Source: a virus (taxonomy: Duplodnaviria > Caudoviricetes). From it: a stretch of 58,119 nucleotides of DNA. Numbering within the stretch: position 1 is the first letter of the stretch; each line of letters begins with the position of its first letter. Below the pieces are notes generated by a model. The model had not been told where the DNA came from. It searched no databases and was given only the letters and a program-made list of their open reading frames with translations. This document shows, in pieces, positions 1,176 through 54,104 of this stretch. Position numbers and translations under genes: made by a program. The stretch is taken from positions 1 through 58,119 of the IMG/VR virus record IMGVR_UViG_3300029319_000051; one strand, 5' to 3'.

Positions 1176-1201
1176 TGAAATTGGATTTGAAGTTTGACAT
1201 T

Positions 1202-1265
1202 GAGAGGTGTTGTATATATACTCTCTTCACTACGTTCAGAGAGAGTATATATACTAACACTCTCT
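1202..1265. repeat. Conserved hairpin element, copy 1
   Basis: Perfect 15-bp inverted repeat GTATATATACTCTCT (1212-1226) / AGAGAGTATATATAC (1240-1254) around TCACTACGTTCAG, with an imperfect outer stem. Confidence 0.9.
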
Positions 1266-1266
1266 A

Positions 1267-1350
1267 TTAAGATTGGAGGAGAGCCACCACAAAAAGCGTA
1301 GCCATCCACGCAAGGAACGCGAGGAACGCGAGGTTCATCTTCTTGTTCAT
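1267..1350 (-). CDS. Small hydrophobic single-TM peptide (27 aa, MNKKMNLAFLAFLAWMATLFVVALLQS)
   Basis: Read manually; basic N-terminus then one hydrophobic helix; fits between its neighbours. Confidence 0.45.
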   Translation of the reverse strand: MNKKMNLAFLAFLAWMATLFVVALLQS

Positions 1351-1365: not shown

Positions 1366-1536
1366 TTATTCATTATCAACAACTTGGAAGCTGTTGTTCT
1401 TCACGGTCTGACCCGTACCTGCCCAAAAATCATGGGCATCATCGCGGGCTACGTCTACGCTCGGGGCGTAGAGGTAGTGGGCTGTCCAATCGTCGCGGTC
1501 GCGCCCAAAGTAGGTGATGTACCTGTACATATTCAT
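1366..1536 (-). CDS. Small early hypothetical protein (56 aa, MNMYRYITYFGRDRDDW...)
   Basis: Read manually; ATGA overlap with the upstream gene. Confidence 0.6.
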   Translation of the reverse strand: MNMYRYITYFGRDRDDWTAHYLYAPSVDVARDDAHDFWAGTGQTVKNNSFQVVDNE

Positions 1537-1910
1537 AGGTAGATGGCTTCAGAGTTGGCAAAATCGTAGATGGCCTTCTCACCCCGCGCTTTGGCAAGTT
1601 CGAGAGCCACTTGCTTGGACTTTACTACGTCAGAGAGTTCGAGGTAAGCTATACCTGCGGGGTCTTCGACCACATCCACCCACGCTCCGATGACTTGGTT
1701 GGGGTCACTCACCACCGACTGAAGTCGGTTCATTTCTCGGTTGAAGGTTCGGAACGAGAGTTCGTCGTTCTTGCACTTGAACGCGCCCACCGCTGGCTCT
1801 GCACCACCGACGGCATAGCCGTCCACGCCTCCATAGGTGAGGAGGTCTTCGCCTCGGACGCTGAAGCCCTCGCTCTCTTGAACGAGGAAGTATAAGGATT
1901 TGATTGTCAT
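1533..1910 (-). CDS. Early protein of the phage family with GxW-D...YLxxS...A...G-[EQ]-AIYD pattern (possibly SAM-lyase-like fold)
   Basis: ATG at 1910 preferred over the upstream GTG, which lies inside the ribozyme; motif IGAWVD...YLELSDVV...RGEKAIYDF. Confidence 0.65.
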   Translation of the reverse strand: MTIKSLYFLVQESEGFSVRGEDLLTYGGVDGYAVGGAEPAVGAFKCKNDELSFRTFNREMNRLQSVVSDPNQVIGAWVDVVEDPAGIAYLELSDVVKSKQVALELAKARGEKAIYDFANSEAIYL

Positions 1911-1930
1911 CGTAGATGAATTTGAAGTTT

Positions 1931-1980
1931 GATACAGACGCCTCACGGCGTTTCGTCCAGTCAGGACTCGTCAGTGTACC
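1931..1980 (-). ncRNA. Type I hammerhead ribozyme
   Basis: Minus strand reads GGUACA-CUGACGA-GUCC-UGACU-GGAC-GAAA-CGCC-GUGA-GGCG-UC-UGUAUC: complete CUGAnGA/GAAA core, three paired stems, GUC cleavage triplet (cut between 1937 and 1936). Confidence 0.92.
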
Positions 1981-2081
1981 TGAAATGCCTGTTGGCATTC
2001 TTCGCAAGTGTGCCTGCTTTCCGCGCTTTCGTCGGTGGGCACAAAATCTGCAAGGCAGATGGAGCATGGCTTCGTGTCCAT
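1971..2081 (-). CDS. Small zinc-ribbon protein (36 aa, MDTKPCSICLADFVPTDESAESRHTCEECQQAFQVH)
   Basis: Read manually; CxxC...CxxC; its TGA stop is the UGA of the hammerhead core. Confidence 0.6.
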   Translation of the reverse strand: MDTKPCSICLADFVPTDESAESRHTCEECQQAFQVH

Positions 2082-2082
2082 A

Positions 2083-2223
2083 TCAGCAGTCGATGAGGTC
2101 AGCCAAGGTCATCTGCTCGTCGCAGGTCAGCTCGTCCCACACAGCAGTGCAGGTGAGGAGGTCGAGGTCGAAAGAAGAGGTCAGGAGGTCAGCGATGAGC
2201 TGACGGCGCAGTTGCTTATCCAT
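2083..2223 (-). CDS. Small early hypothetical protein (46 aa, MDKQLRRQLIADLL...)
   Basis: ATG at 2223, downstream of hairpin 2 and the leader motif; the longer track ORF runs through the hairpin. Confidence 0.55.
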   Translation of the reverse strand: MDKQLRRQLIADLLTSSFDLDLLTCTAVWDELTCDEQMTLADLIDC

Positions 2224-2264: not shown

Positions 2265-2326
2265 AGAGTGTCTTGTATATCTCTCTCTTCACTACGTTCA
2301 GAGAGAGAGATATACTAAGACTCTCT
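2265..2326. repeat. Conserved hairpin element, copy 2
   Basis: Perfect 14-bp inverted repeat GTATATCTCTCTCT (2275-2288) / AGAGAGAGATATAC (2302-2315) around the identical TCACTACGTTCAG core. Confidence 0.9.
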
Positions 2327-2648: not shown

Positions 2649-3197
2649 TTAGAAGGGGAGTTGGTCAAGTCCAACTTCGTTGGAAGGAGAAGGCAGAGTC
2701 GTAGACTCCATGTGCAGGGCGAGCACTGCGGTGAGAGCCTCAATCTTAGCTTCCAAGGAAGCTACTCTTGACTCGTCAACCGAAGGTTGAGCGGCAACTT
2801 CAGCCCTTTCAGCAGTAGCAGAACGAAGTTCTGCTTTCTTCGCTGCTTTAGCAGCGGCCCCAGTGGCCACCGAGACAGCTTTAGCTGACTCCCTAGCTTC
2901 CTTAACGGAAGCTGTCTTAGCCTTCTTCGAAGGCTTAATCGGACCAACTTCGTTGGTCTTGAGAGCCGCTTTGTCTTGGCGGTCTGCCACCTTCTGTGAA
3001 GGTGTTCTCTTCGTCGTCTTACGACGACGCTTCTTGCCAGCCTTCTTCGAAGGCTTGTCGGCAACCTCTTCGAGGTTGTTGATGAAGTCCAAAGCTTCTG
3101 AAAGAAGCTTGACAGCAAGAGCCTTACGGCTCTTGGTTGGACGGAAGATGGCTTGGTTGGTTGCCTTACGGCAAGCTGAGAAATTGAAGTTTGACAT
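2649..3197 (-). CDS. First early gene: Lys/Ala-rich histone-H1-like protein with an SSB-like C-terminal tail (DQLPF)
   Basis: KKAGKKRRRK and AAKAAKK tracts, a coiled coil and a terminal LPF; start directly follows hairpin 3. Confidence 0.7.
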   Translation of the reverse strand: MSNFNFSACRKATNQAIFRPTKSRKALAVKLLSEALDFINNLEEVADKPSKKAGKKRRRKTTKRTPSQKVADRQDKAALKTNEVGPIKPSKKAKTASVKEARESAKAVSVATGAAAKAAKKAELRSATAERAEVAAQPSVDESRVASLEAKIEALTAVLALHMESTTLPSPSNEVGLDQLPF

Positions 3198-3252
3198 GAG
3201 ATAATGTATTAAATGAAACTCATAGAGTTTCGTTTCATTTAATACATATCTC
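3198..3252. repeat. Hairpin 3, abutting the start of the first early gene
   Basis: Perfect 16-bp inverted repeat ATGTATTAAATGAAAC (3204-3219) / GTTTCATTTAATACAT (3232-3247); nested alternative GAAACTC-ATA-GAGTTTC. Confidence 0.85.
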
Positions 3253-8410: not shown

Positions 8411-8484
8411 TGGGGCGTAGTTCAGTTGGTTAGAGCGTCTGTCTTATACACAGGAAGTCGCGGGTTCAAGTCCCGCCGCCCCAA
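8411..8484 (+). tRNA. tRNA-Ile, anticodon UAU
   Basis: Cloverleaf: TGGGGCG/CGCCCCA acceptor stem, TCTGT-CT-TAT-AC-ACAGG anticodon arm, GGTTCAAGTCC T arm; CCA not encoded. Confidence 0.92.
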
Positions 8485-8492
8485 CAATTTAT

Positions 8493-8738: not shown

Positions 8739-8812
8739 GCGCTCGTAGCTCAGTTGGATAGAGCATCTGCCTTCTAAGCAGACGGTCACAGGTTCGAATC
8801 CTGTCGGGCGTA
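8739..8812 (+). tRNA. tRNA-Arg, anticodon UCU
   Basis: Cloverleaf: GCGCTCG/CGGGCGT acceptor stem, TCTGC-CT-TCT-AA-GCAGA anticodon arm, GGTTCGAATCC T arm. Confidence 0.95.
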
Positions 8813-8826
8813 CAAAATTTAATACA

Positions 8827-53801: not shown

Positions 53802-54104
53802 TTAGAACGGGAGGGCATCCTCCGTAGAGGTCTCTGCTGCCTTGGCTGCGCGACGCTCCTTAGCAGCTGCGCTGTTAGGATCGAACACACGGCAGCAAGG
53901 CTTTCCGTTCTTGGACATGAACATGGTGACGTAGAGGTTACCCCCTTGACCCTGTTCGTTGCGAGAAGTTGCATACTTCTCAATCATCTCTTTGAGCTCT
54001 GTGTCCTTGAAGCGGACGTTCCAGCTCAACAACTCGCCTTCGTCGTTGTAACGAGGCTCTTCTGCGTACCCTACGAGTACTGAATCATATTGTTTATCGT
54101 TCAT
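53802..54104 (-). CDS. Putative single-stranded DNA-binding protein
   Basis: 100 aa, beta-rich, acidic tail EDALPF; located between the recombination genes and the primase-helicase. Confidence 0.65.
   Translation of the reverse strand: MNDKQYDSVLVGYAEEPRYNDEGELLSWNVRFKDTELKEMIEKYATSRNEQGQGGNLYVTMFMSKNGKPCCRVFDPNSAAAKERRAAKAAETSTEDALPF

Follow-up and report, generated by a model that had tools for sequence, protein, structure and literature searches.

Hammerhead ribozymes have been described in several viral settings close to the one analyzed here. Perreault et al. (2011; PMC3088659), in the accessible part of their paper, report hammerheads that flank prophage genes, with tandem copies cleaving in vitro and in E. 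coli, and propose that they process long phage transcripts into single-gene mRNAs. The same part of that paper describes HHphage of the haloviruses HF1 and HF2, located 13 nt before the start codon of an early gene, with a transcript 5′ end mapped near the cleavage site. According to the accessible part of Lopez-Galiano et al. (2026; PMC13725137), translation in eukaryotic RNA viruses with type I hammerheads in their UTRs depends on these ribozymes: mutation of a catalytic base abolishes translation of the downstream ORF, and one of these hammerheads lies 7 nt before the start codon. A 2019 review (PMC6765202), in its accessible text, treats what most hammerheads of bacteria and phages do as an open question. 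The open-access literature yielded no paper on hammerheads of Bacteroidota phages or on a fixed ribozyme–leader module.

The window considered here (the whole stretch of DNA that was analyzed, 58,119 nucleotides) is an entire 58-kb contig. Terminase, portal, and virion/structural proteins are encoded on the plus strand, and small ORFs, a primase–helicase, and a PDDEXK nuclease on the minus strand; given this division, the description of the minus-strand block as an early operon in the original prediction is reasonable. The host is probably a Bacteroidota (flavobacterial) bacterium, since the window contains a match to Por_Secre_tail, the T9SS sorting domain (below the Pfam cut-off), and a BT4734-like domain, and since the nearest cultured relatives are phages of Maribacter, Cellulophaga, and Flavobacterium (31–34% at the amino acid level). 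The phages carrying this hammerhead are marine and appear to be lytic. When 50,697 phage records were searched by blastn with 1.2 kb and with the 75-nt module, no relative came up, the matches being short and weak (E 0.05–7); no cultured phage is similar at the DNA level, and a pattern scan of 185,579 prokaryote genomes gave 0 matches. A scan for sigma-70 promoters and terminators gave nothing informative for a phage of the Bacteroidota type. Two phage tRNAs, Ile (TAT) at positions 8411–8485 and Arg (TCT) at positions 8739–8813, are located on the plus strand just upstream of the terminase gene.

The hammerhead occupies positions 1931–1980 on the minus strand, which reads from 1980 to 1931 GGUACA–CUGACGA–GUCC(UGACU)GGAC–GAAA–CGCC(GUGA)GGCG–U–C–UGUAUC. 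The 5′ strand of stem I, GGUACA (1980–1975), pairs with the 3′ strand, UGUAUC (1936–1931), in an open helix of 6 bp. The catalytic core CUGACGA (1974–1968) is followed by stem-loop II (1967–1955; 4 bp, GUCC/GGAC, loop UGACU), by GAAA (1954–1951, with GAA at 1954–1952), and by stem-loop III (1951–1938; CGCC/GGCG with the GNRA loop GUGA), which comprises five pairs including the closing A15.1–U16.1 pair (A1951–U1938). The cleavage-site nucleotide is C17 at position 1937, the last base of the GUC site, and cleavage is predicted between 1937 and 1936. All hammerhead-defining positions are canonical: the core C3–U4–G5–A6–N7–G8–A9 and G12–A13–A14 are present, G10.1–C11.1 forms the base of stem II, A15.1–U16.1 is intact, and position 17 is not G. 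The topology is that of type I, with stem I open and stems II and III capped by loops. A tertiary contact between stem I and loop II, of the kind that gives fast cleavage at physiological Mg2+, may be hinted at by the geometry of the 6-bp stem I and the 4-bp stem II, by the invariant A residues at −1 and +1, and by the U...U loop II; the putative partners do not vary and show no covariation.

Folded alone, the 50-mer adopts the hammerhead fold as its minimum free energy (MFE) structure (−16.0 kcal/mol). In a 101-nt context the MFE structure (−30.4 kcal/mol) contains a small UCAG/CUGA hairpin that displaces stem I, and the hammerhead-constrained fold (−28.6 kcal/mol) lies 1.8 kcal/mol above it. 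The original prediction of a complete type I hammerhead at this place is upheld in its core, stems, and topology, and its coordinates for the GUC site (1937/1936) are correct, as is its 26-nt leader, which spans 1936–1911 and precedes the ATG at 1910. On sequence grounds, the identification of positions 1931–1980 as a genuine canonical type I hammerhead, for which self-cleavage is predicted, can be regarded as confirmed.

A structural descriptor that demands the core, the GAAA, the A–U closure, H17, and three stems has 1931–1980 as its single match on both strands of the 58,119 bases. Among dinucleotide-preserving shuffles, a match as good (stems of 6/4/5 pairs) appears in 0 of 1000 and any relaxed match in 2 of 1000; the core motifs by themselves are no rarer than chance (17 matches vs. 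12.6 expected). A search with Rfam hammerhead models, proposed with the original prediction as a check, gives a divided answer: RF00163 aligns the window copy end to end, but with 23.7 bits, below the gathering score of 34, which is the cut-off of one Rfam model and not a property of the ribozyme class. The E-value is 0.00092 in a 211-base search and 0.25 over the whole window, where the E-value scan returns nothing besides the hammerhead at E 0.25. Because the score is below gathering, Rfam alone would not call this copy. The same holds for its relatives: at the gathering threshold no Rfam ribozyme is found in the window or in 12 related loci, and 0 of the 25 related copies scored in these 12 loci reach the Rfam hammerhead thresholds, so standard Rfam annotation misses them. 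Model R1, described below, gives the window copy 72.0 bits, a high score that is expected, as R1 was partly built from that copy. A second R1 match in the window (54009–54070; 13.7 bits, E 0.19) lacks the CUGANGA core and was rejected.

Relatives of the protein encoded downstream of the ribozyme (59–88% identity) were taken from 10 IMG/VR loci, picked by protein only and blind to RNA. A hammerhead is located immediately upstream of the homologous gene in seven of these loci (L001, L004–L008, and L010); L009 has two copies further upstream, while L002 and L003 have none. In this protein-anchored set of 13 copies, 5 of the 15 pairs show changes on both sides. Covariance model R1, derived from this set of 13, identified 84 copies (63 distinct rows) in 59 further IMG/VR stretches gathered by a degenerate pattern. 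The pattern fixed the 5′ strand of stem I, the core, and part of stem II, hence conservation there is by construction, and the invariance of the core among relatives partly reflects the search; the 3′ strand of stem I, stem III, the free positions of stem II, and all flanks were unconstrained. The R1 alignment follows the model by fitting; of its 934 pair cells, 99.7% contain standard pairs, and compensatory changes are seen at 10 of the 15 pairs. Cells altered on both sides number 144; shuffles give 40.7 ± 7.0, with 0 of 500 reaching the observed value, and the signal vanishes when the pairing partners are slid. Covariation supports all three helices around the core, and the A15.1–U16.1 pair is retained in 62 of 63 rows. 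Judged by these comparisons, the hammerhead family is a real, selected RNA structure.

The 84 matches and the window copy reduce to 75 distinct contexts, of which 72 were counted; those dropped are a copy truncated where a contig stops, one whose stem III is decayed, and a tandem copy with A–A at positions 15.1/16.1. Position 17 is C in 70 of the 72 contexts, A in two, and G in none, and the bases immediately before and after stem I are A in all 72. Stem III hairpins occur in 27 forms and loop II in 13, with the leader constant; inspection by eye for base pairing of loop II with the leader accordingly gave no covariation. Up to four copies are found within 3 kb (L067, four in 2,980 bases); L006 and L059 have three copies each, and several other loci have two. 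Locus L012 carries a decayed copy. Head-to-tail hammerheads, 1 nt apart, are observed in L017 (4213–4311) and L068 (5568–5666); the second copy (L017:4266 in the former) scores 23.2 bits and has A–A in place of A15.1–U16.1, and so is probably inactive.

Cleavage would leave a 26-nt leader, UGUAUC followed by AAACUUCAAAUUCAUCUACG (1911–1936, minus strand), in front of the ATG (1910–1908) of a gene for a 125-aa protein (1533–1910, minus strand), the putative recipient of the processed leader. Due to the type I topology, just 6 nt of the ribozyme stay on the downstream mRNA. The leader is G-poor, has no Shine–Dalgarno motif, and is predicted to be unstructured; the fold of 1880–1936 has −2.9 kcal/mol (z −0.51). 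None of the 171 homologous clusters of the 125-aa protein has a Pfam domain, and the only PHROG match is a weak one to phrog_17808. In 57 of the 72 contexts, 24–28 nt separate the cleavage site from the ATG of an ORF with 30 or more codons; the interval is 19–30 nt in 62. The same leader precedes many unrelated genes, the downstream ORFs having 58 distinct 12-residue N-termini. The consensus of the 46 distinct leaders is AAACUUCAA(A)UUCAUCUACG, with a G content of 2.3%; Shine–Dalgarno-like 4-mers and internal AUGs are each found in 0 of 46, and A stands at −3 in 27. Since the start-codon spacing is fixed and the leader conserved, the ribozyme belongs to the 5′ UTR of the downstream gene.

Some database homologs of the 125-aa protein are 141–147 aa long, and in the window a longer, GTG-started ORF (1533–1946) extends through the leader into the ribozyme. 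We read the longer homologs as starts called upstream; gene callers may read through these ribozymes.

Assembled contigs from four seawater metatranscriptome runs, representing relatives at 85–99%, served as RNA data; contigs cannot show RNA ends. None has at least 31 letters on both sides of 1936/1937, which says nothing on cleavage, and where contigs end roughly 15 nt inside the ribozyme, the repeat has probably interrupted the assembly.

On the upstream side, the hammerhead overlaps a 36-aa ORF with an ATG start (1971–2081, minus strand). Its last codons, GUA CAC UGA, fall in stem I and the first core bases, so that the core UGA (1973–1971) is its stop codon, in agreement with the original prediction. 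The ORF had also been named a zinc ribbon; the spacing CxxC-16-CxxC is indeed present and is the sole basis for that name, the best Pfam match (zf-H2C2_2, E 0.027) having 15.3 bits vs. a cut-off of 40, and no significant match is seen in Pfam or PHROG. A near-identical copy of the ORF is found in L065, while L009 and L028 have a different, 57-aa ORF, for which the part in common with the 36-aa ORF is the tail ...QQAFKVH* only. Further upstream lies a 46-aa gene (2083–2223, minus strand) ending in ...DEQMTLADLIDC*, and in many relatives the hammerhead comes directly after this gene; the RNA-library contig of one relative joins 1939 to 2085, with the small ORF missing.

In 23 of the 72 contexts the longest upstream ORF terminates at the core UGA; in the other 49 it does not. 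The stop is located 10–47 nt upstream in 44 and at +10/+11 in three, and two contexts have no ORF of at least 30 codons; the upstream-stop distance is thus variable (0–47 nt). Homologous loci had been proposed as a check on both stem covariation and the stop-codon overlap, and they bear out the former and not the latter as a general feature; translation-coupled cleavage, as originally proposed, does not emerge as a trait of the family. The conserved trait is the tie to the downstream gene, by distance and leader, and not the overlap with a stop codon.

In the window, a 7-bp hairpin, GAAUGCC–AACA–GGCAUUU (1983–2000, minus strand), is situated 2 nt 5′ of stem I, within the small ORF. Hairpins of at least 6 bp are found beside stem I in 23 of 72 contexts, compared to 17 of 71 at the −60 nt control and 6 of 70 at −120 nt, and hairpins of at least 4 bp in 48 of 72, compared to 47 of 71 at −60. 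The frequency is not clearly above the control, and the hairpin as a general part of the ribozyme was rejected. Before many hammerheads there is a conserved gene (...LIDC*/...LIDM*) whose stop codon lies inside the triloop of a small hairpin (e.g., L011 10640–10665 and L018 4010–4033); the stem of this hairpin has at least three unrelated sequences, ACUGCU/AGCAGU, GAUUGAUAU/AUAUCAAUU, and ACAGC/GCUGU.

The hammerhead is not the only structured element in front of this leader. A long perfect hairpin with the conserved loop CUGAACGUAGUGA is located at 2275–2315 (minus strand), followed by a AAACUUCAA leader and the ATG at 2223; its arms measure 14 bp by repeat search and 16 bp by a script allowing one mismatch. 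A second long-hairpin module with the same loop lies at 1199–1267 (minus strand), again with the leader after it and then an ATG, at 1175. Over the loci and the window, 32 distinct copies of the module are found, two of them in the window. The hairpin is mostly 15–17 bp long, its loop CUGAACG(U/A)AGUGA is conserved while the stems vary by matched changes, and without exception it is found on the strand of the early genes, with the AAACUUCAA leader and an ATG after it. In L002 (2900–2960), a long hairpin with the loop GAACGAAGUGA replaces the hammerhead before the homologous gene, with the same leader after it. At the thresholds used, the long hairpin has no counterpart in Rfam; it may serve in processing, as a promoter, or in protein binding. 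In four relatives the order is hammerhead, about 35 nt, a tRNA-like element, and the standard leader. These elements (L065 224–289, L051 682–747, L029 12239–12304, and L020 7528–7596), all just upstream of the leader, score 36–39 bits to RF00005, and ARAGORN calls one of the four, with an odd anticodon; L065 has the window’s small ORF upstream. As three kinds of structured element stand before one kind of leader, the ribozyme is read as transcript punctuation.

A further perfect hairpin, of 16 bp and with 12 nt in its loop, is found on the minus strand at 3204–3247 of the window, 6 nt ahead of the ATG at 3197. The first codons of the 182-aa ORF that starts there (AUGUCAAACUUCAA...) coincide with the leader motif, and the same 14-mer occurs at 1187–1200; because of this motif, the 182-aa ORF may have been annotated with the wrong start.

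The explanation that we consider likely is that an active hammerhead punctuates the early polycistronic transcript and gives the 125-aa gene a defined leader. The motif, its conservation and covariation, its position relative to the start codon, the leader, and the interchange of modules are observed; from these we infer cleavage in vivo, as well as effects on stability and translation. The ribozyme would be part of the 5′ UTR of the 125-aa gene, inside a block of co-directional early genes. Once the polycistronic RNA is made, the ribozyme would fold co-transcriptionally and cut itself after GUC. The upstream product would retain its stop codon together with nearly all of the ribozyme (stem-loops II and III) and end in a 2′,3′-cyclic phosphate; the downstream product would begin with a 5′-OH, followed by the G-poor, unstructured 26-nt leader and the AUG. 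An altered stability of the 5′-OH product, which was part of the original prediction, is plausible. The downstream cistron would be uncoupled from the upstream content, and the leader would suit a host that does not use Shine–Dalgarno pairing: in the accessible part of PMC6847099, mRNAs of Bacteroidetes are without Shine–Dalgarno sequences, and initiation relies on low structure and A at −3. Cleavage would not unmask the start region, as only 6 nt of the leader are paired beforehand, and so structure alone does not readily explain a benefit for translation. Common descent of a ribozyme-plus-leader module, and not independent selection, could also account for part of the fixed spacing.

Several other readings have to be weighed against punctuation of the transcript. 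The ribozyme and its leader might form a cassette boundary for recombination or exchange of early genes, with cleavage incidental or selfish, as near-identical modules of about 75 nt stand before many unrelated genes, several per genome; moreover, two different ORFs have only the module-proximal tail ...QQAF(Q/K)VH* in common, and a second repeated module, the long hairpin, occupies equivalent places. Repeats serving recombination alone, however, would need no compensation in three helices, no invariant core, and no H17, which makes this reading unlikely; it is in any case compatible with processing as a by-product and is not a true alternative. Somewhat less probable still is the gating of cleavage by translation of the small ORF, in which a ribosome terminating on the core UGA would block folding. 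Given its footprint size, a terminating ribosome would often cover the 5′ strand of stem I; the stop in the window is the core UGA, the 23 contexts with the same overlap include ORFs of up to 142 open codons, and by the longest-ORF criterion the stop is at the core UGA or at most 24 nt upstream in 61 of 72. The overlap is nevertheless missing in the 49 other contexts and is therefore not what selection keeps, and it is expected from tight gene packing, with the ribozyme supplying stops at 0 and often at +10. In addition, cleavage is irreversible, so transient occlusion could at most delay it, and in a type I hammerhead the stop stays on the upstream product, so coupling is not needed for correct termination.

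The upstream RNA could instead be the selected product, its structured cyclic-phosphate 3′ end stabilizing or terminating the message, and the leader being secondary. Type I topology does leave stem-loops II and III on the upstream fragment, with stops within 0–47 nt; yet it is this upstream spacing that varies, while the ATG spacing and the leader downstream are conserved, and in the four relatives noted above the ribozyme precedes a tRNA-like RNA, with no particular gene before it. We regard this account as very improbable. A chance match or an inactive relic is hardly credible: the Rfam score below gathering would fit it, as would the decayed L012 copy and the A–A tandem copy L017:4266 among the relatives, but the absence of an equal match in 1000 shuffles, the intact core, and the covariation over 63 distinct sequences argue against it.

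Transcript punctuation by the hammerhead could be extended further, to a scheme that we put forward as speculative and, on balance, doubtful. Self-cleavage would here be a natural insulator and an enabler of translation in hosts that ignore Shine–Dalgarno sequences, the cut, by which an internal cistron would become an mRNA with a free 5′-OH end and a G-free leader of about 25 nt, being required for efficient initiation; the hammerhead, the long hairpin, and the tRNA-like element would be interchangeable punctuation, and early-gene cassettes could be swapped with their expression unchanged. If true, prokaryotes would thereby have a counterpart to the ribozyme-dependent translation of eukaryotic RNA viruses.

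Compared with known RNA families, the window copy resembles RF00163 (clan CL00010) in its full core, GAAA, A15.1–U16.1, C17, three helices, open stem I, and looped stems II and III, whereas the phage family differs in a stem I of exactly 6 bp with invariant flanking A residues and without bulge or loop. The hairpin just 5′ of stem I in the window copy recalls RAGATH-1 (RF03152), but the score is 22.9 bits vs. a gathering score of 56.3, and the 5′ hairpin is inconsistent in the phage family. Among functional analogs, the RNase III sites between the early genes of T7 and the synthetic insulator RiboJ are, like this hammerhead, RNA elements between cistrons that cut the transcript and standardize its ends. 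RNase III sites require a host enzyme, unlike the hammerhead, while RiboJ keeps the ribozyme on the downstream RNA, of which just 6 nt would be left here.

The comparison with described viral hammerheads shows both likenesses and differences, as far as the accessible parts of the sources go. Similar to the prophage hammerheads of PMC3088659, those described here are intergenic in polycistronic units of phages, with relatives that have clustered copies; they differ in the fixed distance of about 25 nt to the start codon, in the conserved leader, and in their occurrence in contigs of apparently lytic marine phages. Under the array criterion of that paper, the window has one copy, and arrays are seen in relatives (L006/L059, L067, and others); the sequences may already be listed in its datasets. 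HHphage, too, is a hammerhead placed a few nucleotides before an early gene's start codon, but has a variant core, belongs to archaeal viruses of salterns, and serves the first gene of a transcript and not an internal cistron as here. In the viruses of PMC13725137, the type I hammerhead likewise sits shortly before a start codon; these systems differ in being eukaryotic and cap-independent, with RNA genomes. The present family provides clean test material for the role of hammerheads: it comprises dozens of natural variants in which the core is intact, the start codon lies at a fixed distance, and the leader is conserved, with the hairpin and the tRNA-like element as natural replacement alleles at the same position. 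Phage hammerheads are already known; what is well defined here is a genomic grammar of a fixed leader and interchangeable modules.
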